Origin: Alphaproteobacteria bacterium
Lineage (GTDB): Bacteria > Pseudomonadota > Alphaproteobacteria > CALKHQ01
Assembly (NCBI GenBank): GCA_965227515.1
Contig: CBDDFZ010000001.1
Coordinates: 3,904,001-3,968,000 of the forward strand
Length of the DNA stretch: 64,000 nt
Reading direction: 5' to 3'
A model generated the notes under the pieces. It made no database searches. It was not told the origin of the DNA and saw only the letters and a program-made list of their open reading frames with translations. The position numbers were made by a program, and so were the translations under genes. Every line of letters begins with the position of its first letter. Position 1 is the first letter of the stretch. Below are positions 23,882 to 54,401 of the stretch, one piece after another.

Positions 23882-23913
23882 GGCAGGCTATTTCCTCAAT
23901 GAAAACAACAACC

Positions 23914-24002: not shown

Positions 24003-24029
24003 GACAAGCGATTCTTGGCACCGTATCCA

Positions 24030-28929: not shown

Positions 28930-28937
28930 GACGTGTC

Positions 28938-29476: not shown

Positions 29477-30412
29477 ATGAACGACGGCTATCCGCGCGAC
29501 CTGATTGGCTACGCCGACAACCCGCCGCAGGCCGACTGGCCGGGCGCTGCGCGCGTGGCGGTGCAATTCGTCCTCAATTACGAGGAGGGCGGCGAGAACA
29601 GCGTGCTGCACGGCGACCCCGCCGCCGAGGCGTTTCTGTCGGAGATTGTCGGCGCGGCACCGATCCACGGTATGCGCCACATCAACATGGAAACCATCTA
29701 CGAGTACGGCAGCCGCGTCGGCGTGTGGCGCATTCTGAAGCTGTTCCAGCGCAAGCAGGTGCCAATCACCGTCTTCGCCGTCGGCATGGCGGCGGAGCGC
29801 CACCCCGACGTGATCAAGGCGATGGTGGCCGACGGGCACGAAATCTGCAGCCATGGCTATCGCTGGATCGACTACCAGTACGTGCCGGAGCAGGTGGAGC
29901 GCGAGCACATCATGCGCGCCATCACCGCCATCCACAACGCCGCCGGCACGCCGCCGCTGGGCTGGTATACCGGCCGCACCAGCCCGAACACCCGCCGGCT
30001 GGTGGTGGAGCACGGCGGCTTCCTCTACGACGCCGACGCCTACAACGACGACCTGCCCTATTGGGTCACGGTTGGCGACACGCCGCACTTGGTGGTGCCC
30101 TATACTCTGGACGCCAACGACATGCGCTTCGCGACCCCGCAGGGGTTCAATTCCGGCGACCAGTTCTTTGCCTACCTGCGCGACAGTTTCGACGTGCTCT
30201 ATGCCGAGGGCGCTGAGACGCCTCGGATGATGTCGATCGGGCTGCATTGCCGCCTGGTCGGCCGGCCGGGCCGCATCGCGGCTCTGGAGCGCTTCATCGA
30301 CCACGTCCAGGGCCACGGCGATGTGTGGTTCTGCCGGCGGATCGACATTGCTAGGCATTGGCGCGAACGCCACCCCTACCCGCCACACGCCGCCGCATCG
30401 CCGGACGCATGA
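29477..30412 (+). CDS. puuE: Allantoinase PuuE (polysaccharide deacetylase fold)
   Basis: YPRDLIGY, NYEEGGE, YEYGSRVG, HGYRW, GWYTGR, GLHCR. Confidence 0.92.
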   Translation: MNDGYPRDLIGYADNPPQADWPGAARVAVQFVLNYEEGGENSVLHGDPAAEAFLSEIVGAAPIHGMRHINMETIYEYGSRVGVWRILKLFQRKQVPITVFAVGMAAERHPDVIKAMVADGHEICSHGYRWIDYQYVPEQVEREHIMRAITAIHNAAGTPPLGWYTGRTSPNTRRLVVEHGGFLYDADAYNDDLPYWVTVGDTPHLVVPYTLDANDMRFATPQGFNSGDQFFAYLRDSFDVLYAEGAETPRMMSIGLHCRLVGRPGRIAALERFIDHVQGHGDVWFCRRIDIARHWRERHPYPPHAAASPDA

Positions 30413-30912
30413 GCGCGGCGCCGACAGATCGCGCCGGCTTCGTTGCCCGCTTCGGCGGTGTGTTCGAGCATTCGCCGTGGATCGCCGAGACCGCGTTCGA
30501 CCGCTACGGCTTCGACCCCGACGAGACCGCCGCCGATGTGCATCGCCACATGGTGGCCGTGCTGGACGACGCCAAGGAGACCGCGCACCTGGCGCTGATC
30601 CGCGCCCATCCCGACCTTGCCGGCAAGCTGGCCCGCGCCGGCGAGCTGACCGAGGCGTCGCGCCGCGAACAGGCCGGCGCCGGCCTGGATGCCTGCTCCG
30701 ACGAGGAGTTCACCCGGCTTACCGCGCTGAACGACGCCTACAAGGAGCGTTTCGGCTTCCCCTTCATCCTGGCGGTGAAGGGGCGCACCCGTCACGACAT
30801 CATCGCGGCCTTCGAGCGGCGGCTGCACAACGACCGCGCCGCCGAGATCGCCACCGCCATCGCCGAGATCAAGAAGATCGCCCTTTTCCGCTTACAGGAC
30901 ATGCTGCCATGA
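30409..30912 (+). CDS. uraD: OHCU decarboxylase
   Basis: FEHSPW, AHPDLAG, SRREQ, FGFPFI; ATGA overlap with puuE. Confidence 0.92.
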   Translation: MSAAPTDRAGFVARFGGVFEHSPWIAETAFDRYGFDPDETAADVHRHMVAVLDDAKETAHLALIRAHPDLAGKLARAGELTEASRREQAGAGLDACSDEEFTRLTALNDAYKERFGFPFILAVKGRTRHDIIAAFERRLHNDRAAEIATAIAEIKKIALFRLQDMLP

Positions 30913-31928
30913 CCGCCCCAGACCAGGACAACGCCCCCGCCTTCACACGCCAATGGGCCAATGTCGCCGACGCCACCCTGGGGGCCTATGCCGTGGAAGC
31001 CACCGACGAGTTCTTCGGCGGCAAGGCCCGGCTGCTGAAACCGGAGGCGCCGATCTCCAAGATCGGCACGTTTGACGCCCATGGCCAGTGGATGGACGGC
31101 TGGGAGTCCCGCCGTCGCCGCGTGCCCGGCCACGACCACGTGGTGGTGCGCCTGGCCGCGCGCTGCCGCATCCACGGCTTCGACATCGACACTGCGTTCT
31201 TCACCGGCAATTACGCGCCGGCCGCATCCATCGAAGCCTGCCTCAGCGACAGCGAGCGGATCGAAGAAGGCGACTGGCGGCAGGTGATGCCGCACACGCC
31301 GCTTGGGCCGAACGCGCACCACTACATCGCCGTCGACGATCCGGAACTGGTCAGCCACATCCGCCTGCACATCTACCCCGATGGCGGCGTCGCGCGCTTG
31401 CGGGTCTATGGCGAGGTCGCGATCGACTGGTCGCGCCACGACCCCGACGAGATGATCGACCTCGCCGCGCTGATGAACGGCGGGCGCGCGGTCGCCTGGA
31501 ACGATTCCCACTACGGTACGCCGTCGAACATCCTCAAACCCGGCCGCGGGACCAACATGGCCGACGGGTGGGAGACCAGGCGCAGGCGCGAGCCGGGGTA
31601 CGACTGGACGATCATCGCGCTGGGCTCGCCCGGCGCGCCGCGGCGGCTGGAGATCGACACCACCCACTTCAAGGGCAACAACCCGGCGCGGTGTTCGGTG
31701 CAGGGCGCGATCAGCGACACCGACATCGAACAGGCGCTGGTGGCCGAAAGCCTGCACTGGCCCGACCTGCTGCCGGAACAGCCGATCCAGCCCAACGCCG
31801 CGCAGGTGTTCGAGGACGAGCTGCGCGATCTGGGGCCGATCAGCCATGTGCGGCTGAACATGATCCCGGACGGCGGCATCAGCCGGTTCAGGGTCCACGG
31901 CCACCGTGGCGAAGCATCGGAAGGTTGA
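30909..31928 (+). CDS. alc: Allantoicase
   Basis: Two repeats with DGWESRRRR / DGWETRRRR, FTGN / FKGN and PDGG motifs. Confidence 0.92.
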   Translation: MTAPDQDNAPAFTRQWANVADATLGAYAVEATDEFFGGKARLLKPEAPISKIGTFDAHGQWMDGWESRRRRVPGHDHVVVRLAARCRIHGFDIDTAFFTGNYAPAASIEACLSDSERIEEGDWRQVMPHTPLGPNAHHYIAVDDPELVSHIRLHIYPDGGVARLRVYGEVAIDWSRHDPDEMIDLAALMNGGRAVAWNDSHYGTPSNILKPGRGTNMADGWETRRRREPGYDWTIIALGSPGAPRRLEIDTTHFKGNNPARCSVQGAISDTDIEQALVAESLHWPDLLPEQPIQPNAAQVFEDELRDLGPISHVRLNMIPDGGISRFRVHGHRGEASEG

Positions 31929-31935
31929 GGGTGAA

Positions 31936-32469
31936 ATGAGCGCCAACCCTGCACAATCCGCCTTGTTGCGGATACAACCGTTGAGCCGCGATGCCTTCAG
32001 GCCGTTCGGCGACGCAATCACGGCCGAGGGCGTGACGCCGCTGTCGATCAATGACGGCTATACCGCGCGCTTCAACGACCTCGCGAACGTGGATGTCGCC
32101 GAGAACGGCGGCCGGCCGCTGGTCTCCATCTTCCGCACCCAGCCGTTTGCAATGCCCTACCGCCTGACCATGATGGAACGCCATCCGCTGAGCAGCCAGG
32201 GCTTTTATCCGGCGACCGACGGCAGGTTCATCGCGGTGGTGGCACCGCCCGGCACCGCACCGACGCCGGATGACTTGGTGGCGTTCTTGTGCGGACCCGG
32301 CCAGGGGCTCAACCTGGCGCGTGGCGTGTGGCACCATCCGCTGATGCCGATCGATCGGCCGATGGACTTCGTCGTCGTCGATCGGGGCGCGCCGGACGGC
32401 GAGGAAGATCCGAACTGCGACATCGTCGACATGACGCGCGCCAACATCTCGGTCGGCCCCGGCGCCTGA
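31936..32469 (+). CDS. allA: Ureidoglycolate lyase
   Basis: FRPFGD, ERHPLSSQ, GVWHHP, VVDR. Confidence 0.88.
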   Translation: MSANPAQSALLRIQPLSRDAFRPFGDAITAEGVTPLSINDGYTARFNDLANVDVAENGGRPLVSIFRTQPFAMPYRLTMMERHPLSSQGFYPATDGRFIAVVAPPGTAPTPDDLVAFLCGPGQGLNLARGVWHHPLMPIDRPMDFVVVDRGAPDGEEDPNCDIVDMTRANISVGPGA

Positions 32470-39788: not shown

Positions 39789-40714
39789 GTCGGAGACGTA
39801 TCCCTCAATGCTTCCAGTTCCTCGATGGTGCGCGGCCAGTCCTTCTTCAGAAGGCGCGACAGCGACCGGTCGGCCAGCACCTTGCCCCCGGTCTGGCAAC
39901 GCGGGCAATAGTTGGTTTCGTTGTCGGCGTAACGGATGCGCTGCACCTTGGTATCGCACACCGGGCACGGCTGGCCGTACTTGCCGTGAACGGCCATCTC
40001 CGGCCGGAACGCGGTGACCTTCTCGGGAAACTTGGTCCGCGCCTCGGCGCCCAGCCGGTCGCACCACAGCGCCAGCGTGTCCTGCACCGCCGTGTGCAGG
40101 CGGTCGATCTGGTCGCCGTCGAGCTTCTGGGTCATCGCCACCGGCGACAGGCCGGCGGCGTGCAGGATCTCGTCGGAATAGGCATTGCCGATGCCGCTGA
40201 ACAGCCGCGGGTCGGTCAGCGCCCGCTTCACCGTATGGTTGGCGGCGGTCAGCCGCTCGGTGAAGGCGTCGCGGGCGAGACCCAACGGCTCGATGCCGCC
40301 GGGGTCGAGGGCGGCCAGCCCCGCCTCCCCCGCCGCCAGATGCAGCGAGGCGCGGCGCTTGGTGCCGGCCTCGGTCAGCACCAGCGACCCAGAAGAAAAG
40401 TCGAACGCAGCCAGCCCCTGCTTGCCGCGTGGGATCGCCGCCCCTTTCGGCTTCCAGTGCAGACGGCCGGCAATCATCAGGTGCAGCACCAGCCAGATGT
40501 CATCGCCGTCTCCAGCCAGCCCGATGGCGATGCGCTTGCCGACCCGCCTGAGGCCCGACACCCGCCTGCCCTTCGCGTCCGAAACCGGCGGCTGGACCGA
40601 GCGCAGCAGGAACGGGTTGGCGATCCGCACATCGTCCAGGGTCGCGGCCGGGTCGCCAAGCAAGTGCGGCTCAAGTGCCGTGAGATAGGCCTGGATGTCG
40701 GGCAGTTCCGGCAA
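39785..40714 (-). CDS. Fpg/Nei family DNA glycosylase
   Basis: N-terminal PELP, H2TH GIGNAY, zinc finger CPVC...CPRCQ. Confidence 0.88.
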
Positions 40715-40730
40715 TGGGCGCCTCTTGGAA

Positions 40731-42155
40731 TTATTTCAGCGCGTATGGCACCGCGTCGCGCCGGGCCGGGTCAAGCAGGATCGCGCGGTCGATGGGCGGG
40801 AACGCGCGCTGCGGGCATTTCGGCCGCTCGCAGATGCGGCAATTCACGCCGATCTTGACGTAGGCGTTGTCGTCCTTGAGGTCGAGGCCGGAGGCATAGA
40901 CCAGGTCGCCGGCATGGGCGAGCTCGCAGCCGAGCCCGATGGCATAGCGCCGGTCCGGCTCCAGATAGCCGCGCCCGCGCTTTACCACCGAGCGCGAGAT
41001 GCACAGATAGCGCGCGCCATCCGGCATCTCGGCGAGTTGCACCAGGAAGCGGCCGGGCGTGACGAATGCCTGGTGCACGTTCCACAGCGGGCAGGTGCCG
41101 CCGAAGCGCGCGAACTGGAATGGCGTGGCGCTGTGCCGCTTGGTGATGTTGCCGGCCTGGTCGACCCGCACGAAAAAGAACGGCACGCCCCGGCTGCCCG
41201 GCCTCTGCAGGGTGCTCAGCCGGTGGGCGACCTGTTGCAGGCTGGTGCCGAAGGCGAGTTGCAGGCGCTCCAGATCGTGGCGGACCGCGCGCGCCGTCTC
41301 CAGGAACCGGCCATAGGGCATCAACAGCGCGCCGGCGAAATAGTTGGCCAGCGCCACCCGGCAGATCGCCTGGGCGTCGTGGCTGGTGAGCCCGGATGCG
41401 GCGACGATATCGTCGAGTTCGTCGGCCAGGCTCAACAGCCCGATGTGGTGGGCGAGCATGAAGGCGATGCTGGCCCGGTCCAGCGCCGGGTTGACCGCGA
41501 TCGCGCGCGCCTTGGCGTCGAAACGCCAGAACTGCTGGGCGGAAGGGTCGTCCAGCCCGGCGTCGACCCGCACGTCGAGCGCATCGCGCAGATGGTCGGC
41601 CAGCAGGCGGGTTGCGTCGTCGCCGCCAAGCCCGATGCGCCCCGACAAGGTCTCGGCCGCGCGGTCCAGCGTGTCGATGTAGTTGTTGTGGTAGTGGAAG
41701 TAGTCGCGCACCTCCTCGTAGGGCAGCATGGCGGCGTCATGCGCGCCCTCCGGCGACGTCAGACTCTCGTCCACCGCGCGCAGACGCTCGCGCAACCGGT
41801 GGGTCTCGCTGTGGAGCAACAAGAGGCTGCGCGCCACGTTCGGCGCCACCGAGACCGCCTGTTTCACCTCCTGCAAGCCCGGCGCCTGGCCGGCGAACAG
41901 CGGATCGGTCAGGGTCTCGCGCAGGTCGGCGACGATGCGCTCGTGATCGTCCTCGGCAAACTCGCCGACGTCGATGCCGAAGGCACGGCTCAGCGCCACC
42001 AGCACGGTCGCGGTCACCGGGCGCTGGTTGTTCTCGAGCTGGCTGACATAGCTGAGCGAAAGGCCCAGCCGCTCGGCGAGATCGGCCTGGGTCAGCGCGC
42101 TGTCCTGGCGCAGGCCGCGCAACTTGTGGCCGAGGAACAGTTTGGCGTCGTCCAA
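40731..42155 (-). CDS. prpR: Short-chain fatty acyl-CoA regulator (PrpR/RamB/ScfR family)
   Basis: XRE HTH ([12 protein letters not shown]), [32 protein letters not shown]; divergent from prpD. Confidence 0.85.
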
Positions 42156-42175
42156 GGGCGCATCCTCGCGGCAAT

Positions 42176-42216
42176 CTTCGCAATTTCACAACTTCACGCT
42201 TGTGAATTGTGCGAAG
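42176..42216. promoter_or_regulatory. Probable PrpR operator
   Basis: Imperfect inverted repeat CTTCGCAATTTCACAA / TTGTGAATTGTGCGAAG made of TTTGCAAA-like boxes, in the divergent prpR-prpD gap. Confidence 0.55.
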
Positions 42217-42335
42217 TTTACAACATGGCCATTTCAACACAATCCCGAATTGCGCCGCGCCGCGATTTGGGGATTATGGCCGCCATCGGCCGGCTGGCCC
42301 GGCTGCGACGTCGTCACAGATCGGAACCGCGCGCC

Positions 42336-43853
42336 ATGAAGACATACAACGTCACCGTCCATCCCGAGGCCGAGCGGCTGCCCAAGGCCGACCAACTCGC
42401 CTACAAGATCGCCGAGGTCGCCGCCGACCCGGTGCCGCTGGACGACGACGTGGTCGACATGATCATCAACCGCATCATCGACAACGCCTCGGTGGCAATG
42501 GCGGCGATCAATCGCCGGCCGGTTGCCACTGCGCGGGCGCAGGCAGTGGCGCACCCACGGGCCAGCGGCGCCACGGTGTTCGGTGTGTCGAAGGACGCGC
42601 GGTTCAGCCCGGAGTGGGCGGCATGGGCGAACGGCACCGCGGTGCGCGAACTCGATTTCCACGACACCTTCCTGGCCGCCGACTATTCGCATCCCGGCGA
42701 CAACATCCCGCCGATCCAGGCGGTCGCCCAGACCATGGGGTCCGACGGCCAGGCGCTGCTGCGCGGCATCGCCACCGGCTACGAGATCCAGGTGAACCTT
42801 GTGCGGGCGATCTGCCTGCACAAGCACAAGATCGACCACGTCGCCCATCTGGGCCCGTCGGCGGCCGCCGGCATCGGCACGCTGCTCGGCCTGGACGTCG
42901 ACACCATCTACCAGGCGGTGCAGCAGGCGCTTCATGTCACCACCGCCACCCGCCAGTCGCGCAAGGGCGAGATTTCGAGCTGGAAGGCGTTCGCGCCCTC
43001 CCACGCCGGCAAGCTGGCGATCGAGGCGGTCGACCGGGCGATGCGCGGCGAAGGCGCCCCCTCCCCGATCTATGAGGGCGAGGACAGCGTAATCGCCTGG
43101 ATGCTGGACGGGCCGGACGCCGACTACCGGGTGCCGATGCCCGGCCCCGGCGAGGCCAAGCGCGCGATCCTGGACACCTACACCAAGGAACACTCGGCCG
43201 AATACCAGAGCCAGGCGCTGATCGACCTCGCCTTCGACATGGGCAAGAAGATCGAGGCGAAGACCGGCGGCGACTGGGACCAGGTGGAGAGCATAGTGCT
43301 CCACACCAGCCACCACACCCACTACGTCATCGGCACCGGCGCCAACGACCCGCAAAAGATGGACCCGACCGCCAGCCGCGAGACGCTGGACCATTCCATC
43401 ATGTACATCCTGGCCGTCGCCCTGCAGGATGGGCGCTGGCACCATGTCGACAGCTACGCGCCGGAGCGTGCGGCCCGCGCCGACACCGTGCGGCTGTGGC
43501 ACAAGATCAGCACGGTAGAGGACCCGAAGTGGTCGATCCGCTACCACGCCACCGACCCGGAGGATAAGGCGTTCGGCGGCAAGCTGGTGGTGACCCTGAA
43601 GGACGGCACCGTGCTGGAGGACGAGCTGGCGGTCGCCAATGCCCACTCGCTGGGCGCCCGCCCGTTCGCGCGGCCCGACTACATCAACAAGTTCAAGACG
43701 TTGTGCGCGGGCACCGTGCCCGCCGACGAGCAGGAGCGGTTCTTGGCCGCGGTGCAGCGCCTGCCCGACATGGGCCCGGCCGACCTGGGCGAGCTGACCG
43801 TACAGTTGGACGATGCCGCGCGCACCGACAACACGGCGAAGGGGATATTCTGA
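42336..43853 (+). CDS. prpD: 2-methylcitrate dehydratase (MmgE/PrpD)
   Basis: [33 protein letters not shown]. Confidence 0.9.
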
Positions 43854-44746
43854 TGCTGTTCAGCCAGAAACTCGCCGGCGACAAGCGCGCGGCCTTTCGC
43901 GCCGCACTCGCCTCCGGGCGGCTGCTGCAGTTCCCCGGCGCGTTCAACCCGCTGGCGGCGATGTCGATCCAGAACCACGGCTTCGACGGGGTCTACATCT
44001 CCGGCGCCGTGCTGTCCGCCGACCTCGGCCTGCCCGACATTGGACTCACCACGCTGACCGAAGTGTCGGGCCGGGCCGAGCAGATCGCCCGGGTCACCGA
44101 CCTGCCCTCCATCGTCGATTGCGATACCGGGTTCGGCGAGCCGATGTCGGTCGCCCGCTCGATCCGCACCATGGAGGAGCGCGGGCTGGCAGGCTGCCAC
44201 CTGGAGGACCAGGTGGCACCGAAGCGTTGCGGCCATCTCGACAACAAGTCCGTGGTCGGCATCCCGGAGATGGCGATGCGCCTGCGCGCCGCTGTCGACG
44301 CACGCCGCGACGCCAACTTCGTGATCATCGCGCGCACCGACAGCCGGGCGATGGAGGGGCTGGACAAGGCCATCGACCGGGCCAAGGCCTATGTCGATGC
44401 CGGCGCCGACATGATCTTTCCCGAAGCGATGGCCGACGAGAGCGAGTTCGAGGCGATGCGCAAGGCGGTCGATGTGCCGCTGCTCGCCAACATGACCGAG
44501 TTCGGCAAGTCCGAGCTGCTGACCAAAGACGCGCTGGAGGGCCTGGGCTACAACATCGTGATCTACCCGGTCACCCTGCTGCGGCTGGCGATGGGCGCCA
44601 CCGAGCGGGGGCTTGCCGAGATCAAGGCCCAGGGCACGCAGGCCGGCCTGCTGGACCAGATGCAGCACCGCCGCGACCTCTACGCGCTGCTGCGCTACGA
44701 GGACTACAACGCGTTCGATCAGTCGATCTACAACTTCAAGGTTTGA
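43853..44746 (+). CDS. prpB: 2-methylisocitrate lyase
   Basis: DCDTGFG, EDQVAPKRCGH, ARTD, ANMTEFGK. Confidence 0.93.
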   Translation: MLFSQKLAGDKRAAFRAALASGRLLQFPGAFNPLAAMSIQNHGFDGVYISGAVLSADLGLPDIGLTTLTEVSGRAEQIARVTDLPSIVDCDTGFGEPMSVARSIRTMEERGLAGCHLEDQVAPKRCGHLDNKSVVGIPEMAMRLRAAVDARRDANFVIIARTDSRAMEGLDKAIDRAKAYVDAGADMIFPEAMADESEFEAMRKAVDVPLLANMTEFGKSELLTKDALEGLGYNIVIYPVTLLRLAMGATERGLAEIKAQGTQAGLLDQMQHRRDLYALLRYEDYNAFDQSIYNFKV

Positions 44747-44778
44747 GGCCGGCTGCAAACTCGGTTCTGAAAAAGACC

Positions 44779-44866
44779 GTCATGCCCGCACTTGTTGCGG
44801 GCATCCACGAGATGGCGGCAAAGCCGCCAACAAGACGTGGATGGTCGGGACAAGCCCGACCATGAC
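44779..44866. repeat. REP-like family A doublet inside the prp operon
   Basis: GTCATGCCCGCACTTGTTGCGGGCATCCAC ... GTGGATGGTCGGGACAAGCCCGACCATGAC. Confidence 0.85.
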
Positions 44867-44891
44867 AGTGGTTGTGTGAGGGAGAGGAAAC

Positions 44892-46022
44892 ATGGCGAGC
44901 GACGGAGAAGACATCAAATACGGGCTGGCGGGCGTTCTGGCCGACGAGACCGCGGTCTCCAAGGTGATGCCGGAGACCAACTCGCTGACCTATCGCGGCT
45001 ATGCGGTGCAGGACCTGTGCGCCGCGCGCGACTTCATGGACGTCGCCTACCTGCTGCTGCACGACGACCTGCCCGATGCCGCCCAGCGCACAGCGTTCTG
45101 CGCCAAGGAGGCCGGCTACCGCGCGCTCAGCGACGACTGCCTGACGCTGATCGGCATGTTCAACACCGCCGCCCACCCGATGGACACCCTGCGCACCGCG
45201 GTCAGCCTGCTGGGCGTCGAGGACGACACCACCAACGACAATACTGTCGAGGCGGACCTGGAAAAGTCGATCAAGCTGTTGGCGCGCATCCCCACCATCG
45301 TCGCCGCCGACTTCCGCCACCGCCATGGCAAGGCGCCGATCGCGCCCGATCCGGCGCTCGGCTATTGCGAGAACTTCTTCAATATGTGCTTCGGCGAGGT
45401 ACCGCCGGCCGAGGTCATCCGCTGCTTCGACATCTCGCTGATCCTCTATGCCGAGCACAGTTTCAACGCTTCCACCTTCACCGCGCGCACCATCACGTCG
45501 TCGATCTCCGACCTCTATTCGGCGATCACCGGCGCCATCGGCTCGCTGAAGGGCCCGCTGCACGGCGGCGCCAACGAGGCGGTGATGCATGTGCTGCTGG
45601 AGATCGGCTCGCCCGACAACGCCGAGCCCTGGCTGCGCAAGGCGCTGGCCGAGAAGCGGCTGATCATGGGCTTCGGCCACCGGGTCTACCGCAGCGGCGA
45701 CAGCCGGGTGCCGACCATGACCGCCGCCTTCCACGACATGGCGAAGCTGCGCGACGGCGAGAAGTGGATCGAGATTTCCGACGTATTGTCGAAGATCATG
45801 ATCGGCGAGAAGGGCATCCACCCCAATCTCGATTTCCCCACCGGGCCGGCCTACTATCTGATGGGCTTCGACATTCCCATGTTCACGCCGATCTTCGTGA
45901 TGTCGCGGATCACCGGCTGGGCCGCCCACGTGCTGGAGCAGCGGGCCAACAACAAGCTGATCCGCCCGCTCAGCGCGTACAACGGCGTGCCGCAGCGCCC
46001 GGTGCCGCCGCGGGAGGGGTAG
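44892..46022 (+). CDS. prpC: 2-methylcitrate synthase
   Basis: AEHSFNASTF, GPLHGGANE, GFGHRVY, PNLDF, KLIRP. Confidence 0.92.
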   Translation: MASDGEDIKYGLAGVLADETAVSKVMPETNSLTYRGYAVQDLCAARDFMDVAYLLLHDDLPDAAQRTAFCAKEAGYRALSDDCLTLIGMFNTAAHPMDTLRTAVSLLGVEDDTTNDNTVEADLEKSIKLLARIPTIVAADFRHRHGKAPIAPDPALGYCENFFNMCFGEVPPAEVIRCFDISLILYAEHSFNASTFTARTITSSISDLYSAITGAIGSLKGPLHGGANEAVMHVLLEIGSPDNAEPWLRKALAEKRLIMGFGHRVYRSGDSRVPTMTAAFHDMAKLRDGEKWIEISDVLSKIMIGEKGIHPNLDFPTGPAYYLMGFDIPMFTPIFVMSRITGWAAHVLEQRANNKLIRPLSAYNGVPQRPVPPREG

Positions 46023-46040
46023 GCGACTATTAAGCTTCCC

Positions 46041-46128
46041 GTCATGCCCGCACTTGTTGCGGGCATCCACGAGATGGCGGCGAAGCCGACAAGAAGACGT
46101 GGATGCTCGGGTCAAGCCCGAGCATGAC
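46041..46128. repeat. REP-like family A doublet
   Basis: Same left arm as 44779 and a similar central GATGGCGG..AAGCCG loop. Confidence 0.85.
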
Positions 46129-46185
46129 GAAAGGTGGTTTTGGCCAGTGCTGACGACAAATGCTCGGCCAGGGAGGGAAACGACC

Positions 46186-48081
46186 ATGAGCGAACGCTTC
46201 GATGCCGTGTATCGGCGCGCGCACGACGATCCTGAGGCGTTCTGGGCCGAGGCCGCCCAGGCGGTCGACTGGATCTCGCCCTGGGAGCGGGTGCTGGACG
46301 ACAGCGACGCGCCGTTCTACCGCTGGTTCACCGGCGCCACCCTGAACACCTGCTACAACTGCGTCGACCGCCATGTCGCGGCCGGGCGCGGCGACCAGGC
46401 GGCGATCATCCACGACAGCCCGATCACCGGCAGCCAGCGCACCCTCACCTACGCCGAGCTGCAGGACCAGGTCGCGCGTTGCGCCGGCGCGCTGAAGGAC
46501 ATCGGCGTCGCCTATGGCGACCGTGTGATCGTCTACATGCCGATGGTGCCGGAGGCCGCCATCGCCATGCTGGCCTGCGCGCGCATCGGCGCGATCCATT
46601 CGGTCGTGTTCGGCGGCTTCGCGGCCAAGGAGCTGGCCACCCGCATCGACGACGCCAAGCCGGTCGCCATCGTCTCCGCGAGCTGCGGCATCGAGCCGGG
46701 CCGGGTGGTCGAGTACAAGCCGCTGCTGGACGAGGCGATCGAACTGGCGACGCACAAGCCGACGAGCTGCCTGATCCTGGCCCGCCCCCAGGCCGCCGCC
46801 GCGCTGATCGACGGCCGCGACCACGACTGGAACGACGCGCTGGCCGCCGCGACGCCGGCCGACTGCGTGCCGGTGAAGGCGACCGACCCGCTCTACATCC
46901 TCTACACGTCGGGCACGACGGGGCAGCCCAAGGGCATCGTGCGCGACAATGGCGGCCATGCGGTGGCGCTGACGTGGTCGATGAAGAACATCTACGACGT
47001 CAATCCCGGCGACGTGTACTGGGCGGCGTCCGATGTCGGCTGGGTGGTCGGCCACTCCTACATCGTCTACGGCCCGCTGCTGCACGGCTGCACCACCATC
47101 GTCTATGAGGGCAAGCCGGTCGGCACGCCGGACGCCGGCGCGTTCTGGCGGGTGATCGCGGAGCACGGGGTCGCCGCCATGTTCACCGCCCCCACCGCGA
47201 TCCGCGCGATCAAGAAGGAAGACCCCTCCGGCGCGCGGCTGAAGGACTACGACCTCGGCAAAATGCGGACGCTGTTCCTGGCCGGCGAGCGCTGCGACCC
47301 TGACACGCTGAACTGGTGCGAGGAGATCCTGGGCCTGCCGGTGATCGACCACTGGTGGCAGACCGAGACCGGATGGGCCATCGCCGCCAACTGCGTCGGC
47401 ATCGAGCGCCTGCCGGTGAAGCCGGGTTCGCCGACCCGCGCCGTTCCGGGCTACGACGTGCAGATCCTCAACGAGGCCGGCGAGCAGGTCGGTGCCAACG
47501 AGATCGGCAACATCGTCGTCAAGCTGCCGCTGCCCCCCGGCACCCTGCCCACCCTGTGGGGCAACCGGGAGCGCATGCGGCAATCCTATCTGTCGCGCTA
47601 TCCCGGCTACTACCTGACCGGCGACGCCGGCATCGTGGACGACGACGGCTACATCCACATCATGAGCCGCATCGACGACGTCATCAATGTGGCCGGCCAC
47701 CGGCTGTCGACCGGCGCGATGGAAGAGGTGCTGTCCAGCCACCCCGCGATTGCCGAATGCGCGGTGTTCGGCGTCGACGACGCGCTGAAGGGCCAGGTGC
47801 CGGTCGGGCTGGTGGTCATCAAGGACGGGGTTGGCCAGGCGCCGGGCGACATCGTCAGCGAATTGCTGGCCAAGGTGCGCCACGACATCGGGCCGGTCGC
47901 GGCATTCAAGACCGCGGCCGTGGTGGCGCGCCTGCCCAAGACCCGGTCCGGCAAGATTCTGCGCGGCACCATGCAAAAGATCGCAAACGGCGCCGACTAC
48001 CAGGTCCCCGCCACCATCGACGACCCGGCGATCCTCAGCGAGATCGAGACAACGCTGTCAGGCATCGGCTACCCCAAGTAG
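46186..48081 (+). CDS. prpE: Propionyl-CoA synthetase
   Basis: YTSGTTGQPKG, WWQTETG, PKTRSGKILR; prp operon context. Confidence 0.88.
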   Translation: MSERFDAVYRRAHDDPEAFWAEAAQAVDWISPWERVLDDSDAPFYRWFTGATLNTCYNCVDRHVAAGRGDQAAIIHDSPITGSQRTLTYAELQDQVARCAGALKDIGVAYGDRVIVYMPMVPEAAIAMLACARIGAIHSVVFGGFAAKELATRIDDAKPVAIVSASCGIEPGRVVEYKPLLDEAIELATHKPTSCLILARPQAAAALIDGRDHDWNDALAAATPADCVPVKATDPLYILYTSGTTGQPKGIVRDNGGHAVALTWSMKNIYDVNPGDVYWAASDVGWVVGHSYIVYGPLLHGCTTIVYEGKPVGTPDAGAFWRVIAEHGVAAMFTAPTAIRAIKKEDPSGARLKDYDLGKMRTLFLAGERCDPDTLNWCEEILGLPVIDHWWQTETGWAIAANCVGIERLPVKPGSPTRAVPGYDVQILNEAGEQVGANEIGNIVVKLPLPPGTLPTLWGNRERMRQSYLSRYPGYYLTGDAGIVDDDGYIHIMSRIDDVINVAGHRLSTGAMEEVLSSHPAIAECAVFGVDDALKGQVPVGLVVIKDGVGQAPGDIVSELLAKVRHDIGPVAAFKTAAVVARLPKTRSGKILRGTMQKIANGADYQVPATIDDPAILSEIETTLSGIGYPK

Positions 48082-48429
48082 CCCCCGACCGCAGCCAGCC
48101 TGCCCGACCCGCGGTCCGCCGCCCATTGTGCCGGCATCGGTAACGACCGGCCGACAACGACATCGCACGGTTGTGCGATTGTCCGGACAACGCCTTTTCC
48201 AACCTTACGTCTCGTTCAGGCAACGCATTACGCTTGCACGCGCCTCCACTATTGGTGTTACACAAAGCTGTGACACAAGAGTGTTACGAATCTGGGCAGG
48301 CGGGGGGAAGCTGGCATCGCAGGCGAATGATGCTAGGCGGGACATTAGTCGCGCATGAAACGGATACAATAGCGCGCGCTCGTTCTACTTCCTCGCGGCC
48401 ACCCATGTGCAATGGAAAGGCGGGGAAGT

Positions 48430-49416
48430 ATGACCTTTACAACACCATCTACTCCAATGTTGAGTGACGGCGCCGACGGTTCGGCCGCGCGCCATATCTC
48501 CGACCGCTACGATGCCCGTGTGGTCGACAATCTACGCAATGCGGCGGCCCAGGCGGCGCAGTTCGCGACACCCTTCGACGACTGGAAGGGCCTTACCGAG
48601 CTTGAGCTTGCCTACGATCGCACCTATGGCGCGTTGTGGCTGTATGCCTGCCCGTCGGGCCGGCCGAGCTCGACACCGCAACTGCTCCACGACATGGTCG
48701 CCGTCTTCGACCAGATCGAGGAAGCGCACACGTCTGGCGCAACCCGGGCCGCACCGCTGAAATGGCTGATCACCGCGTCGGGCGTGCCGGGCATCCTGCA
48801 CCTGGGCGGCGACCTGAAGCGGATCGTCGAAATCGTGCGCGATTGCGACCGTGACTCCCTGATGGACTATGCGCGGCTGTGCATCGACGTGGTGTACGCG
48901 CGTCTGGCCAAGCGCAACATGCCTTACATCAGCATCACCCTGGCACAGGGCGACACCTTGGGTGGCGGCTTCGAGGCCGTGCTGGCCGACGACGTCATCA
49001 TCGCCGAGAAGCAGGCGCGTTTCGGCATGCCCGAAGCCCTGTTCAATATGTTCCCGGGCATGGGTGCGCTCAGCTTCCTGACCCGCCGGGTCGGACAGCG
49101 GCTGGCCGAGGAGATCGTGTTCAGCGGCTCGATCTACAGCGCCGCGCAGATGCACGAGATGGGCGTGGTCGACATTCTGGTCGAGGACGGCACCGGCGAG
49201 GATGCGGTCGACGAGTTCATTCGCTCGATCGGGCGCAGCTACAACTCGCGGCGCAGCGTCTATGCCGCGCGCGGGCTGACCAACCCGGTCACCTACGAGG
49301 AACTGCTGGGCATCACCACCATGTGGGTGGACACGGCGATGGCGCTGGACGCCAAGGACCTTCGCCGGATGGAGCGTTTGGTGGCGGCGCAAGACAGGAG
49401 ATTGGCTCAGATGTAA
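48430..49416 (+). CDS. rpfF: DSF/BDSF synthase (crotonase family, RpfF)
   Basis: LGGDL, GGGFEA and GMPEALFNMFPGMGA.SFL.R catalytic glutamates; C-terminal WVDTAM...RMERLVAAQ as in RpfF; convergent with an rpfC homologue. Confidence 0.85.
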   Translation: MTFTTPSTPMLSDGADGSAARHISDRYDARVVDNLRNAAAQAAQFATPFDDWKGLTELELAYDRTYGALWLYACPSGRPSSTPQLLHDMVAVFDQIEEAHTSGATRAAPLKWLITASGVPGILHLGGDLKRIVEIVRDCDRDSLMDYARLCIDVVYARLAKRNMPYISITLAQGDTLGGGFEAVLADDVIIAEKQARFGMPEALFNMFPGMGALSFLTRRVGQRLAEEIVFSGSIYSAAQMHEMGVVDILVEDGTGEDAVDEFIRSIGRSYNSRRSVYAARGLTNPVTYEELLGITTMWVDTAMALDAKDLRRMERLVAAQDRRLAQM

Positions 49417-49686
49417 GCCACTCATGACTTCGTAGCGCCGGGAACGCCGGCGAACGACCCGCGCCTTATGACGGCGCGTGGCATGGGGGCAAAAATGGGG
49501 GCATCTGCGCGCATTATGGGGGCATCTTGCGCGCTGCATCGCTGATTACGACGATCCGCAACTGACCGGCGTGCACACCCGGCTGTTGCCTTGGCGCACC
49601 CTGATTGCAGGCGAGCGCAACTGATCCTCGGCGGCACCGCCACGCGGAAACGAACGCGGCCTGAACGAGGCTGGCTATCTTGCTGG

Positions 49687-52293
49687 TTAGGTCTTGCTGT
49701 CCGAGCCGCCCTGGCGCGCCCATCGTTCGCGCAGGGTCTGGTCATACAGCGACAATTGCGTGCGCAGGCTGGGCAGCGCATCGGCCATGAACGCCACCAC
49801 CTGGGTGCGCCGCTGCTGCGACAGTTCCGAGCAGATCGCCTGGATGCGCGCGGCGCCGACATGGGCCGAACTGCTCTTCAGGGCGTGCGACGTGTCGCGA
49901 ACGCCGCCGATATCGCGCTCCGCGACCGCGCGCTCCAGGTCGTCAAGCAACTGCCCGGCATCCTCGACATACTCGGTCACCAGTTCGCGGACGAACGAAC
50001 CGCCATTGTCCAGCGCCGACAGGCTTTGCAGCGAATGCTCGTCGACCACCGGGCGCGCGGTCATGCGGAAACGCGGATGGGAGCTCAAGTCGGCGACCTG
50101 GGTGTCGTCCACCGCGCCGCTGGACAGCCTGTCTGCAAAAGTCTCGACCGGGTCCAGGCGTGGGCTCGATGCCGGTGCTGGCCGCGCCGGCGTGGCGGGC
50201 ACTGGCGTTGCGGCCAGTGCGCCGCCCGTGCCCAGTGCAGTCCCAGGTGCGGTTCCAGGCGCGGTGCCATTCGCGCAGTGATCGAGCACACGGATCAGGT
50301 GCTCCGCCTCCACCGGCTTGGTGACGAATGCATCCATGCCGGCCGCCTTGCAGGCCCGCTCGGTGACCGTGGTGGCGTCGGCGGTCAGGGCGATGATCGG
50401 CAGTCGCGGCTGCGGCCCCACCTCGCCCATGCGGACTTCCTTGGCCACATCGATGCCGGACGTGCCGGGCATGTTGACGTCGAGCACCAGGATTTCCGCG
50501 TCGAACTCCGCCAATGCGTCCAGCGCGGCCTCGCCGTTCTCAACCAACCGCACCTCGTGACCGGCCTGGCGCAGGATCATCGCCGTCACCCGGCGGTTCA
50601 CGGCATTGTCCTCGGCCACCAGAACACGCAGCGGTCGCTGCGCCTTGGTGTCGGCCGTGCGTTGATCGATATCGTCGGCAAGGGCGTCGCCGGGGGCACA
50701 GCGCGCACCGAGCCGCGCCGCGGCCTGGATCAGGTCGCCATCGACAGGCTCGGTCACCGCGCAGTAGACCCCGGTGCGCAGCGTGGGCAAGGCCGTGGCG
50801 GTCCACGTGGCCGGCACCACCAGGGCGCCGCGGAACGGTGTCTCGATGGAGTCGATGGCCGTCCCCTGACCTGCATCCTGGTCCCGAATGCTCAGCACCA
50901 CCTTGTCGGGGCTGCCGCCGCTTTCCGCCACCAATTCGAGCCCAAGGTCGCCGGCAAGGGCCGCCACCCGCCCCCGCAGCCGGTCGTCGGAGACCCGCAG
51001 GCGAAGGCCCTCCGGCCGGACCGGTGCCTCGGTGTGGGCCGACACGCTGGCCGGCCGGATCGGCAACTCCATCCAGAAGCGGCTGCCGGCACCGACTTCG
51101 CTGTCGACGCCGATACGTCCGCCCATCAGGTCGGTCAGTTGCCGGCAGATCGCAAGACCCAGGCCGGCGCCGCCATAGCGCCGGCTGGTCGCCTGATCCT
51201 CCTGCGTGAACGGCTCGAAGATATGGCGCTGGGCGTTGGCGTCGATGCCAATGCCGGTATCGATTACGTCGAAGGTCATGCGCGGCGGCGCGTTATCGCG
51301 GGTGACGAGCCTGCAGCAGACGCGCACATAACCCTTCTCGGTGAACTTGATGGCGTTGGCGACCAGATTGGTCAGGATCTGGCGGATGTAGTGCGGCGCG
51401 CCGCGCATCCACGGATCGATCCGCCCATCGATCACGAACTGCAGCCGCAGGCCACGCTCCGTGCACTGCGGCTCCAGCATGCGGTAGAGCTCGACCAACT
51501 CGCCGTTCAGGTCGAAATCGACCTCGTCCACCGGCATGCGCCCAGCCTCGATGCGGGAGAAATCGAGAATCTGGTCGATGTTCGCCAGCAAGGTGCGCGC
51601 CGACGTGCCAATGGTGCGCGTCATGTCGCGCTGCTCCGCGCTCAGGCTGGTCTTCTGCATCAGGCCGCCGATGCCGATGATCGCATTCAGCGGCGTGCGC
51701 AGCTCATGGCTCATGGTGGCCAGGAACTGGCCCTTGGCGTTGCTCGCCGCCTCGGCCTGCAGCTTGGCTTCGGTCAGCTTGCGGATCAGGGTGGAAACGT
51801 AGGCGGGCAGGACGACCAGGGCCGCCAGCAGACCCGCCGACGTGGTCATGTTGTCGTGCCAGTACGGCGACAGCCAGACGACGGCGCCGAAACCCAGCAG
51901 GCTCCCCATCGCGCTCAACGCCAGATACCGGTTGCCGTAGCGGAAGCCGTTACCGAAGGTGACCCACAGGTAGACCAGATAGATCATCGCCGTGGCCGAC
52001 CCCCACCAGTACATGGCGAACGACGTGATCGCGATGTCGGCCACCATGCCGAGCAGGCGGCGGGCTGGATTGGGGTCCGGGTCGGCAGCGATCCAGGCGA
52101 TGAAGCCCAGGGAGACGGTTACGTAGACGGCGATGGAGACAACGGTGACGACACGGTCGCCGGACGCGCCCGCGCCGGCAACCTCCAGAACGCCAAGATA
52201 GACGGCAACCAGACTGACGATGACCAGGCGCACGAACGCCTGCTCGTGCTCGCTATCTGCCCGTCCCCGGAAGCGATCCAAAATGTGTCGCAC
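49687..52293 (-). CDS. rpfC: DSF sensor hybrid histidine kinase (TM-HisKA-HATPase-REC-HPt)
   Basis: N-terminal RGRADSEH, about five TM helices with WVTFGNGFRYG, MSHELRTPLN, AEDN / LDVNMP receiver, HALKSSS HPt. Confidence 0.85.
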   Translation of the reverse strand: MRHILDRFRGRADSEHEQAFVRLVIVSLVAVYLGVLEVAGAGASGDRVVTVVSIAVYVTVSLGFIAWIAADPDPNPARRLLGMVADIAITSFAMYWWGSATAMIYLVYLWVTFGNGFRYGNRYLALSAMGSLLGFGAVVWLSPYWHDNMTTSAGLLAALVVLPAYVSTLIRKLTEAKLQAEAASNAKGQFLATMSHELRTPLNAIIGIGGLMQKTSLSAEQRDMTRTIGTSARTLLANIDQILDFSRIEAGRMPVDEVDFDLNGELVELYRMLEPQCTERGLRLQFVIDGRIDPWMRGAPHYIRQILTNLVANAIKFTEKGYVRVCCRLVTRDNAPPRMTFDVIDTGIGIDANAQRHIFEPFTQEDQATSRRYGGAGLGLAICRQLTDLMGGRIGVDSEVGAGSRFWMELPIRPASVSAHTEAPVRPEGLRLRVSDDRLRGRVAALAGDLGLELVAESGGSPDKVVLSIRDQDAGQGTAIDSIETPFRGALVVPATWTATALPTLRTGVYCAVTEPVDGDLIQAAARLGARCAPGDALADDIDQRTADTKAQRPLRVLVAEDNAVNRRVTAMILRQAGHEVRLVENGEAALDALAEFDAEILVLDVNMPGTSGIDVAKEVRMGEVGPQPRLPIIALTADATTVTERACKAAGMDAFVTKPVEAEHLIRVLDHCANGTAPGTAPGTALGTGGALAATPVPATPARPAPASSPRLDPVETFADRLSSGAVDDTQVADLSSHPRFRMTARPVVDEHSLQSLSALDNGGSFVRELVTEYVEDAGQLLDDLERAVAERDIGGVRDTSHALKSSSAHVGAARIQAICSELSQQRRTQVVAFMADALPSLRTQLSLYDQTLRERWARQGGSDSKT

Positions 52294-52299
52294 GAATAG

Positions 52300-53958
52300 T
52301 CATTCTCCAGAACTCGGCGTCGACGCTTGATTGGCAGTCAAGACACGCGCCGCGGGAAAAGTTGCGACAACCGTTGTGCCTTCGCCGACTGAACTTTCGA
52401 TATTCAGCTTTCCACCATGCAATTCCGTTAATTCGAGGGCCAAAGAAAGCCCAAGGCCGGCCCCCGGCTTCGGAGTATTTCCGGGGCTGCGCAGCCGGCC
52501 AAACCTGGCCAAAGCGAGCTTGACGTCGTCTTCGGCGATCCCGATGCCCTCGTCGGCCACAGCCACCGTCAGATCGCCGCCTTCGGCCAACGCGGACGCG
52601 ACCTTAACATGGCCGCCCTGTGTTGAAAACTTCACGCCGTTCGATACCAGGTTCGACAAGACTTGCTTGAAACGCCGCTCGTCGGCCCAGAGTTCCAGCG
52701 ACGGGTCGACGTCGATCTCGATCGTCACTTCCAAGTCCTCGGCCTTGGCCTCGAAAAACCGCACGACGTTGCGCACCACGTCCCGCACCGAGAATCTCGA
52801 TTCGACCAGGCTAAGGCGCCCGCTCTCTATCTGCGAAATATCAAGTATATCTTCGATCAGCCCCAGCAGGTGCTCGGCACTGCCCAGAATGTCGCCCGCA
52901 TATTCCTTGTAGCGCATGGTCCCGACCGGCCCCAGAAGCTCGGTCGAAAGCACCTCGGCGAATCCGATGATCGCGTTCAGCGGCGTGCGCAGCTCGTGGC
53001 TGGTGTTGGCGAGAAATTCCGACTTGCTACGGTTCGCGAGCTCGGCCGCGAGCTTCGCATCCAGCAGCACGGTCTCGGCCCGTTTCTGCTCGCTGATGTC
53101 GACCGAAACCGTCAGCACCTCGTCGGAGGGGCCATCGCCCTGTAGCAGTGGCAGCTTGGTGGTCTTGAAGCTGACCACCCGGCCGTCGCTGTCCTCCAGC
53201 TCCTCCTCGAACATGCATATGGTCTCGCCGTCCAGTATACGACGGTCGAAGACACCATGGTCGCTACCGCCCCGCGGCAGGCCGATGCTGTCCCAATGCT
53301 GGCCGACGATGGGCGTGCCCAGCGCGAAGAACTCCTCGCACGCACGGTTTGCCATCGTGATGTACCCGGTGGCATCGCGCACGGTGATCAGCGCCGGCAG
53401 CCCATTGATGACCGCGTTCAGCCGGTCCTCCGACTGCCGCAACTCATCGGCGCGCAGCTTGTTGGTGACCTGAAGCCGCTCTTCCAGGCTGACGGCGCGA
53501 CGCCGGATGATCTCCTGCTGATGGCGCAAGGTCAGCAGATTGCTGATTCGCGCCCGGAACTCGCGGTGGTCCAGCGGACTGATCAGGAAGTCGGTGGCGC
53601 CTGCATCCAAGGCGCGGTACCGGAGCTCGCGCTCCTCGTAGACGGTGACCACGACCACCGGCACGTCGAAGCAGTTCGGCATCGCGCGCAATCGGCGAAT
53701 GAAATCGGCGCCGTCCATCGACGGCATCTTGAAATCGGTGATGACCAGATCCGGCGGATTGCGCGAAATCCACTCCAGCGCCGGGCTCGGGCTGTCGAAG
53801 GGCTGGACCTGGACACGCGCGCTCAGGCTAGAGGCAAGCTTGCCCAGGACCGCGCGGTTCGTCGCCCGGTCGTCGACGATGACGATCACCGGCAAGGTGG
53901 CCGTCCGGGTCTGAACCGGCAACCGCGTGACGAGTTGAGGACCTTGTGCCGGAGTCAT
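52300..53958 (-). CDS. REC-PAS-histidine kinase with an RpfG-like receiver domain
   Basis: IVDD...TDFKMPSMDG receiver, RARISNLLTLR...AVSLEERL linker, PAS ending SVDISEQK, TSHELRTPLN, NLVSNGVKF, GAGLGL; start uncertain. Confidence 0.85.
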   Translation of the reverse strand: MTPAQGPQLVTRLPVQTRTATLPVIVIVDDRATNRAVLGKLASSLSARVQVQPFDSPSPALEWISRNPPDLVITDFKMPSMDGADFIRRLRAMPNCFDVPVVVVTVYEERELRYRALDAGATDFLISPLDHREFRARISNLLTLRHQQEIIRRRAVSLEERLQVTNKLRADELRQSEDRLNAVINGLPALITVRDATGYITMANRACEEFFALGTPIVGQHWDSIGLPRGGSDHGVFDRRILDGETICMFEEELEDSDGRVVSFKTTKLPLLQGDGPSDEVLTVSVDISEQKRAETVLLDAKLAAELANRSKSEFLANTSHELRTPLNAIIGFAEVLSTELLGPVGTMRYKEYAGDILGSAEHLLGLIEDILDISQIESGRLSLVESRFSVRDVVRNVVRFFEAKAEDLEVTIEIDVDPSLELWADERRFKQVLSNLVSNGVKFSTQGGHVKVASALAEGGDLTVAVADEGIGIAEDDVKLALARFGRLRSPGNTPKPGAGLGLSLALELTELHGGKLNIESSVGEGTTVVATFPAARVLTANQASTPSSGE

Positions 53959-54401
53959 AAGCCGTCTAGCGCTAGGCGAAAGCGACACCCCACCCACAAT
54001 GCCCTGGCTAACTGAGCGTCCACCAAGGCTGCAACTCGCCGCTTCGCCTTCTCAAGATAGCAGTTCGCCACCCTCAATCAAACTATTCCGCCCAATCGGC
54101 AGCCCGCGATGGGCCAAAAACGCACCGGGTTCCGCCGTCGAAGCGCCTATCGGCGGGCAACGGGCATCCCCACGTATGCGGCTCGGCGGTCCGGATGTCG
54201 CGCCCGCCAGCGGAGTCGCAGCGCCGTGCCGACAGGCGCGCGACGTCCGGTGGGTGCCGACTTGACAGCCGTGGGCAATCGCCCGCAACATCCCGGTTGC
54301 AGAACACTCCGTTCGCGACAGCGTGCACGGCAACAGTCGGTACGTGGCCTGGTCCGCCGGGTCGGCAGCGCGGCGGTCTGATGGGGGAGCGCCGAGTAGC
54401 G

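Follow-up and report, generated by a model that had tools for sequence, protein, structure and literature searches.

The 64-kb stretch analysed here (hereafter the window) belongs to a 4.07-Mb contig (CBDDFZ010000001.1) and carries three adjacent genes resembling the diffusible signal factor (DSF) quorum-sensing system of xanthomonads: an rpfF-like synthase gene, an rpfC-like hybrid sensor kinase gene convergent with it and, in the place usually held by rpfG, a gene encoding a receiver (REC), a PAS domain and a histidine kinase core (hereafter the partner). The features of this cassette are the following:

48412..49416, + strand: rpfF-like synthase gene of the DSF family, a crotonase (P0001; Pfam, NCBIfam and alignment to solved structures)
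49417..49686, no strand: intergenic spacer of 270 bp between the convergent rpfF-like and rpfC-like genes (coordinates)
49687..52293, − strand: rpfC-like hybrid sensor kinase gene, 868 aa (P0002; Pfam and hydropathy)
49783..49986, − strand: histidine phosphotransfer (HPt) domain of RpfC, residues 770–837, with His803 (Pfam)
51769..52293, − strand: input domain of RpfC, residues 1–175, with transmembrane-like segments (hydropathy and sensor-domain comparison)
52240..52263, − strand: codons of the RpfC sensor peptide R-A-D-S-E-H-E-Q, residues 11–18 (comparison with Xanthomonas residues)
52294..52299, − strand: gap of 6 bases between the partner stop and the rpfC start (sequence)
52300..53997, − strand: REC-PAS-HisKA-HATPase partner gene in the RpfG position (P0003; Pfam and comparative loci)
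52348..53028, − strand: kinase core of the partner, HisKA at residues 324–393 (His334) and HATPase at residues 439–550 (Pfam and alignment)
53080..53406, − strand: PAS_4 domain of the partner, residues 198–306, shared with the GGDEF-EAL class described below (Pfam)
53545..53886, − strand: receiver of the partner, residues 38–151 (Pfam and alignment)

Besides the ATG at 48412, the synthase gene has candidate starts at 48430 (the one used in a preliminary description of this DNA) and at 48457, the last of which is likely the true one, as the resulting protein of 319 aa matches the database form P0004. The product has a crotonase fold (ECH_1/PF00378, 5e-21 with Pfam) and its closest solved structures are the crotonase-family 7zq7 (1.3e-50) and Xanthomonas RpfF 3m6m (1.1e-49), with the synthases of the Burkholderia signal (BDSF) at similar values (Burkholderia 5fus, 3e-45; 6dgn, 6e-45), whereas ordinary hydratases reach 1e-13 to 1e-14 at best in the same search. 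Two glutamates, Glu188 and Glu208 (numbered from 48412), lie in GGGFE and MPE motifs, align with the glutamates of 3m6m, 7zq7 and 5fus and are invariant in 23 aligned relatives; we take them to be the counterparts of the catalytic Glu141 and Glu161 in Xanthomonas numbering. The protein passes the NCBIfam model PRK08788 (327 bits for a cut-off of 177), many of its relatives are called “DSF synthase” in the JGI annotation, and its closest metagenome proteins are 60–61% identical, while the closest of the 80 species loci introduced below reaches 48% with tblastn and up to 50% over the tree alignment. Membership in the RpfF family is well supported by these sequence matches, and the enzyme is predicted to synthesize a cis-2-unsaturated fatty acid.

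The sensor kinase shows the domain order of RpfC, with an input region followed by HisKA (residues 186–251), HATPase (301–413), REC (557–669) and HPt (770–837), and it has the three residues expected of a phosphorelay (His196, Asp605 and His803). A simple hydropathy scan of its N-terminal input region, where RpfC-type kinases have five transmembrane helices, yields four strong transmembrane-like windows and a weaker one around residues 82–112, and this input domain is 29.9–51% identical to the sensor domains of 60 related loci (29.9–47% for full-length matches). Detection of DSF by Xanthomonas RpfC depends on Arg15, Asp17, Ser18, Glu19 and Gln22 of its 22-residue sensor, with Ala16 and Ala21 located among these essential residues (PMC5391125). 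R11, D13, S14, E15 and Q18 of the window's protein are in register with all five. That the protein is an RpfC-type member is well supported, and it is predicted to bind DSF and be activated by it. Between the two convergent genes, no terminator-like site was found in the spacer at 49417..49686; the promoter and terminator scan of the window performed no better than on shuffled sequence.

The partner may start at a GTG at 53997 (565 aa) or at an ATG at 53957 (552 aa), and its TGA stop lies 6 bases ahead of the GTG start of rpfC, which is itself preceded by a GGAG; the 6-base gap suggests that partner and rpfC form one operon. With an N-terminal receiver, a PAS domain and a complete kinase core, the protein has the layout of a response regulator–histidine kinase hybrid. 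The receiver retains Asp42/43, Asp88 and Thr118. When the window was aligned with nine related loci and with 72 database proteins of more than 480 aa (82 sequences in all), conservation was at least 95% for the kinase motifs (H-box and N, G1 and G2 boxes) and, in the receiver, for the acidic pair, Asp88 and Thr118; we regard the kinase core as intact and predict it to be active. The protein occupies the place of RpfG and still falls outside the RpfG family, since Pfam finds neither HD nor HD_5 in it and RpfG is defined by its HD-GYP domain; nor does it correspond to RpfR, as it has a receiver and neither GGDEF nor EAL.

The PAS domain of the partner matches no PDB sequence below E = 0.005, its receiver alone obtains generic NCBIfam matches only (best: the PleD family, 69.7 bits for a cut-off of 474), and no model named after RpfG or RpfC is found among the best 25 NCBIfam matches of each protein. 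Some of its relatives are labelled “PleC” by JGI and there is a sub-threshold match to the NCBIfam model of DivJ (184.6 bits for a cut-off of 1000), together a weak hint at best as to the role of the partner. A DNA match of 98 nt had raised the possibility that the partner kinase was a duplicate of the kinase of RpfC. This was rejected: the two cores are about 33–39% identical, and the match is discounted because it falls on the universally conserved H-box.

At the level of the individual genes, the preliminary description is upheld. It had reported an RpfF-type synthase with both catalytic glutamates, now aligned with those of solved synthases, a convergent and complete RpfC with transmembrane helices (four strong hydrophobic segments and one weaker by hydropathy), HisKA, HATPase, REC and HPt domains and a RADSEH peptide, and a REC-containing gene 6 bp upstream of rpfC, here delimited to 52300–53997. 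The resemblance it saw to the xanthomonad arrangement, in which rpfF faces an rpfC–rpfG pair, is equally borne out, as is the lack of rpfH.

RpfF relatives were then sought in one genome per species, which gave 579 loci, the best 80 of which were examined; the locus of the source genome itself is not part of this sample. An RpfC-type sensor domain accompanies the rpfF relative at 60 of these 80, nearly always in convergent orientation and at about +3 kb, so that the linkage is more than chance. Taking as partner any receiver scoring at least 100 bits against that of the window's partner, 53 loci were retained; one truncated ORF (open reading frame) of 109 aa (L025) was dropped and the other 52 partner ORFs, scanned with Pfam, have the following architectures:

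REC-HD_5 (classical RpfG): 10 of 52 (Methylophaga, Nitrospirae, Sideroxydans, Burkholderiales and others)
REC-PAS-GGDEF(-EAL): 29 of 52 (Pseudovibrio, Gluconacetobacter liquefaciens, Inquilinus limosus, Sphingomonadales, Hyphomicrobiales and others)
REC-PAS-HisKA-HATPase, the architecture of the window: 9 of 52 (L001, L002, L004, L007, L012, L018, L035, L062, L067)
REC-HisKA-HATPase: 1 of 52 (L013)
REC-PAS-HisKA_2: 2 of 52 (L030 and L040, two Skermanella species)
REC-PAS only: 1 of 52 (L065)

Histidine kinase outputs are thus present in 12 partner ORFs, nine of which share the exact architecture of the window. At these nine kinase-class loci the partner immediately precedes rpfC in the same orientation, and at four loci (L003, L013, L030 and L040) it lies on the opposite side of rpfF. 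When a large protein collection is ranked by similarity to the REC-PAS module of the window, the best 120 relatives comprise 74 REC-PAS-kinases and 46 REC-PAS-GGDEF-EAL proteins, the top 52 all being REC-PAS-kinases (best identity: 63%). In the closest named relative, an alphaproteobacterial metagenome-assembled genome (MAG), the accessions of the partner and of RpfF are two apart on a single contig of 539,575 bp. Judged from sequence, the kinase version is a recurrent family and not a peculiarity of the source genome.

The receivers of the partners align end to end. That of the window has 52–66% identity with receivers from the kinase and GGDEF-EAL classes, except for five GGDEF-EAL loci of Sphingomonadales (43–46%), and 41–51% identity with receivers from the HD-GYP class. 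In the receiver tree (52 rows, the truncated L016 being omitted), the HD-GYP group is split from all others with a support of 99 in the Shimodaira–Hasegawa-like approximate likelihood ratio test (SH-aLRT), while the kinase class occupies the basal, poorly resolved part of the non-HD-GYP group, the rows nearest to the window being L002, L012 and L001. In the RpfF tree (81 rows), the window falls in a clade of 51 rows (SH-aLRT: 99) that includes all kinase and GGDEF-EAL loci and no HD-GYP locus. On these comparisons, the receiver of the partner is orthologous to those of the proteins found in the RpfG position.

The exchange of outputs is most evident between a kinase locus (L007) and a GGDEF-EAL locus (L006) from two alphaproteobacterial MAGs of close kinship, which are sisters on both trees (SH-aLRT: 95 on the receiver tree) and have 71% identity over 3.3 kb of rpfF–rpfC DNA. 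The two partner proteins agree at 75% of their first 284 residues, which span the receiver and the PAS domain, and share no similarity thereafter, with a clean breakpoint behind the PAS domain that leads to PAS-GGDEF-EAL in one case (L006:7203–9839) and to HisKA-HATPase in the other (L007:13700–15286). Because REC-PAS modules of 75% identity here precede unrelated outputs, we read the kinase form as a genuine and repeated swap of the output domain. The idea of a DSF system with a kinase in place of the c-di-GMP (cyclic di-GMP) output, put forward in the preliminary description, is retained, supported by the orthologous receiver and an architecture that recurs (the combination of rpfF–rpfC with a neighbouring REC-PAS-kinase, for which it had proposed a synteny search, is found in nine of the 80 species loci). 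The architecture is thereby not unique to this genome. The commoner alphaproteobacterial version, REC-PAS-GGDEF-EAL, does act on c-di-GMP, so that the kinase is one of several swaps.

Several of the examined loci have features of their own. In Inquilinus limosus DSM 16000 (L045:12869–15540), the RpfC sensor domain occurs in three tandem copies, two of which lie in short ORFs of about 313–316 aa located between rpfC and the REC-PAS-GGDEF-EAL gene and recalling RpfH of Xanthomonas, which consists of the input domain only. Roseiterribacter gracilis TMPK1 (L062:7407–9755) has, directly upstream of rpfF and in addition to its convergent pair of rpfC and REC-PAS-kinase, a second RpfC-like hybrid kinase with sensor, HisKA, HATPase, REC and HPt. 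In the two Skermanella species (L030:2608–4131 and L040:2646–4178), a receiver of this family is joined to PAS-HisKA_2, a kinase of another family, in a gene on the opposite side of rpfF; this looks like an independent kinase output. Finally, a co-directional RpfR-like gene (MerR-HTH-PAS-GGDEF-EAL) follows the rpfF relative in L017, L044 and L052 (Betaproteobacteria or Pseudomonadota MAGs) and in L072, and in the first three a gene fusing acyltransferase and AMP-binding domains precedes it.

No HD-GYP, GGDEF or EAL domain was detected among the 44 main ORFs of the window, and a six-frame tblastn of the window with HD-GYP, GGDEF and EAL queries returned a best E-value of 0.43. The absence of such domains, as reported in the preliminary description, thus stands for the 64-kb window and for the window only. 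The surroundings of the cassette were studied through Pfam annotation of 45 flanking ORFs at the nine kinase-class loci and through tblastn with ten neighbours from the window, and neither brought up a conserved gene. Since the flanking genes differ at every kinase-class locus, the cassette appears to be autonomous, its three genes travelling together from one unrelated context to another. An AMP-binding gene that lies upstream of rpfF had been considered as an analogue of RpfB and was rejected, as it is a propionyl-CoA synthetase gene that is not conserved with the cassette.

Starting from the observed parts, catalytic residues, operon-like linkage, receiver orthology and repeated output swapping, we infer the chemistry of the signal, each step of phosphotransfer, the direction in which regulation runs and the kind of target as follows. 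The RpfF-like crotonase would make a cis-2-unsaturated fatty acid, which RpfC would sense through its short N-terminal peptide and its transmembrane input. RpfC would then autophosphorylate on His196 and pass the phosphate to Asp605 and on to His803 of its HPt domain. From there, the phosphate would reach Asp88 of the adjacent REC-PAS-kinase, whereas in the classical system it reaches the REC-HD-GYP phosphodiesterase RpfG. Phosphorylation of the receiver, possibly with a second cue entering through the PAS domain, would switch the kinase or phosphatase activity of the partner, which would act on a response regulator encoded elsewhere. The roles of RpfF, of RpfC sensing and of the relay within RpfC are proposed by homology with the Xanthomonas system, while the transfer from HPt to the partner and the action of its kinase are deduced from where the gene lies, from the orthology of its receiver and from its intact kinase.

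The proposed transfer was also modelled by docking the HPt region of RpfC (residues 745–868) with the receiver of the partner (residues 30–165). Compared to 0.06 for the best of three controls, the pair scored 0.64, a mark that 116 of 157 solved complexes and 2 of 215 mismatched pairs attain (counts that apply only roughly here, as own alignments were supplied). Contacts agree to at least 90% among the three runs, the pLDDT (predicted local distance difference test) of the partner is at least 83, and the interface includes both His803 and Asp88. The model is consistent with a canonical geometry and is not proof that the pair binds; because HPt–receiver complexes have already been solved, the result may reflect likeness to these.

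Altogether, we consider it fairly probable that the three genes are a self-contained quorum-sensing cassette of the DSF family that reads cell density through a phosphorylation cascade and not directly through c-di-GMP turnover. Several observations pull in the other direction. Receivers almost always carry a phosphate-contacting lysine (in a “KP” motif). In the partner, this position is occupied by Ser140 (53578–53580, “SP”), as in 42 of the 43 rows of non-HD-GYP partners (threonine in the remaining one, L068), whereas the HD-GYP class has lysine in six cases and arginine in four; among the 120 relatives from the database, a regular expression detects the serine in 102 and leaves 18 unmatched. 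As serine replaces lysine, phosphorylation of the receiver could be atypical or weak. Moreover, neither a response regulator nor any conserved neighbour accompanies the cassette in the window or at the nine kinase-class loci, a canonical RpfG may lie elsewhere on the 4.07-Mb contig, the RpfF of the window sits on a long branch (1.06) of the RpfF tree, and the NCBIfam equivalog for RpfF (NF053515, trained on Xanthomonas) is not reached (211 bits for a cut-off of 550).

The missing lysine and the missing cognate regulator, to which can be added L065, where only REC-PAS remains and no output domain is left, would also fit a partner that is not a forward relay at all and instead serves RpfC as a sink for phosphate, as a phosphatase or as a feedback modulator, draining or buffering the phosphorylated HPt or tuning DSF synthesis, with no regulator following it. 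We hold this to be unlikely, since a mere sink would not need the complete kinase core (H, N, G1 and G2) that is conserved across 82 sequences, and since the same receiver family bears enzymatic outputs elsewhere (HD-GYP, GGDEF-EAL and HisKA_2 kinases). Somewhat less likely still is that the target of RpfC is a canonical REC-HD-GYP RpfG, or another regulator, encoded elsewhere, the adjacent kinase belonging to an unrelated pathway that shares the operon. Our view is limited to 64 kb of the genome, hybrid kinases with an HPt domain can serve several receivers, and the docking model cannot separate cognate from related receivers; yet the receiver is orthologous to one fused to HD-GYP or GGDEF-EAL in the same position at 39 other loci, the 6-base gap points to co-translation, and the gene stays with rpfF and rpfC although the genomic surroundings change, the closest named relative having its two accessions side by side on one contig as described above.

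The position of the crotonase gene, 330 bp downstream of the propionyl-CoA synthetase gene of a prp cluster, and the unmet equivalog cut-off would also suit a metabolic enoyl-CoA hydratase or isomerase tied to propionate (methylcitrate) genes, with kinases sensing a cue other than DSF. This seems quite improbable, given that prp neighbours are found at none of the 80 related loci, compared to 60 with an RpfC-type sensor, that two characterised DSF/BDSF synthases are the top solved matches (1e-45 to 1e-50) far ahead of the hydratases (1e-13 to 1e-14), and that the RpfC peptide retains its DSF-sensing residues. A phosphorylation cascade remains the reading we favour. A bolder extension of it, which we regard as doubtful, would have DSF-type quorum sensing run, in a large and mostly alphaproteobacterial clade, through an atypical receiver-PAS adaptor with serine for lysine that was repeatedly reconnected, now to c-di-GMP enzymes, now to histidine kinases of two kinds or more, the kinase form feeding a PleC/DivJ-like kinase and, through it, single-domain or PleD-type developmental regulators.

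Compared to known systems, the cassette is closest in layout to RpfF/RpfC/RpfG of Xanthomonas campestris, where, according to a 2015 review, the synthase gene is likewise convergent with an operon ending in rpfC (PMC4504480). The two RpfC proteins also share their domain order and sensor-peptide residues, and in both systems a receiver gene lies directly upstream of rpfC, the window's receiver having 42–50% identity with those of REC-HD-GYP partners at related loci. In contrast, the output in the window is PAS-HisKA-HATPase instead of HD-GYP, its receiver has serine for lysine, and the cassette includes neither rpfH nor an rpfB-type ligase gene. The alphaproteobacterial REC-PAS-GGDEF-EAL partners have the same cassette, RpfF clade and serine, and their REC-PAS is 44–47% identical to that of the window, but their output is the synthesis and hydrolysis of c-di-GMP and not a histidine kinase. 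With the RpfF–RpfR systems of Burkholderia and Cronobacter, the window shares a homologous synthase and a PAS domain in the signalling protein, while RpfR (PAS-GGDEF-EAL) has no receiver, binds the signal itself and works without RpfC.

Kinases have been linked to DSF-family signals before: two reports (PMC4504480 and PMC4159695) describe RpfS (a PAS kinase), BCAM0227/0228 and PA1396/1397, accessory sensors showing that such signals can act by way of kinases and DNA-binding regulators in addition to c-di-GMP. These kinases sense the signal themselves, whereas the second kinase of the window would act downstream of RpfC, in the RpfG position. A kinase that phosphorylates the receiver of a second kinase is known from another alphaproteobacterium, Rhodospirillum centenum, in which CheA3 acts on the receiver of CheS3, which alone phosphorylates the final regulator (PMC3868531). 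The likeness to the window, where this step would have its counterpart, is drawn from the published description of the pathway, and the CheA3–CheS3 pathway is chemotaxis-like and not a quorum-sensing system.

The 2015 review distinguishes two core systems of DSF perception, RpfC/RpfG and RpfR, along with the accessory sensors RpfS, BCAM0227 and PA1396, and lists rpfF–rpfG–rpfC clusters beyond xanthomonads only in Methylophaga, Leptospirillum, Thiobacillus and Methylobacillus (PMC4504480). In listings and abstracts from the open-access PMC and bioRxiv literature (subscription journals lie outside this scope), neither a REC-PAS-kinase nor a REC-PAS-GGDEF-EAL partner of RpfC is described, nor is DSF signalling in Alphaproteobacteria; the same applies to the consulted parts of a cold-seep preprint (10.1101/2024.11.15.623595). 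The kinase-output cassette has thus apparently gone undescribed so far, in line with the preliminary description, which knew of no account of this architecture.

Around the cassette, the window carries metabolic genes. The methylcitrate (propionate) cluster at 40695–48081 is composed of a PrpD-domain gene, a citrate/2-methylcitrate synthase gene (44892–46022) and the propionyl-CoA synthetase gene (46054–48081); the PrpD ORF, called at 1052 aa, probably extends too far at its 5′ end, as an ORF on the opposite strand (40731–42185) has a higher G+C content at third codon positions. Genes related to coenzyme F420 (1750–7489) encode a luciferase-like monooxygenase, an F420-dependent NADP oxidoreductase-like protein, CofC-like and CofD proteins and a radical-SAM CofH/CofG-like protein. 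A purine/urate catabolism cluster (16623–32469) includes a membrane urate oxidase, a Bmp-family ABC transporter, xanthine dehydrogenase subunits, HIU hydrolase, a PuuE-like deacetylase, OHCU decarboxylase and ureidoglycolate lyase. A scan of the window with Rfam returned no match. The source organism is distant from the collections searched, the best identities being 76% for PrpE (the propionyl-CoA synthetase), 61% for RpfF and 63% for the partner. For PrpE, the next matches, from Chromatiales and an alphaproteobacterial MAG, stand at 72–74% and are not decisive for taxonomy. The relatives of the cassette are overwhelmingly alphaproteobacterial, and, judged from these, an alphaproteobacterial host is plausible.

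DSF signalling is usually taught as the conversion of a fatty-acid signal into c-di-GMP turnover. The cassette and its relatives show a synthase–sensor pair that is widespread in Alphaproteobacteria and whose receiver module serves as a swappable adaptor, one recurring form of which would drive a second kinase. This kinase form is carried by uncultured and a few cultured Alphaproteobacteria; among the latter, Roseiterribacter gracilis TMPK1 (L062) has the kinase form itself and the Skermanella species (L030 and L040) the HisKA_2 form. Should the kinase form feed a PleC/DivJ-like kinase, fatty-acid quorum sensing would be directly linked to the alphaproteobacterial cell-cycle phosphorelay. More generally, the kinase form predicts a further regulon and regulator, and it would offer a naturally occurring case in which to follow the rewiring of a quorum-sensing input towards another output.

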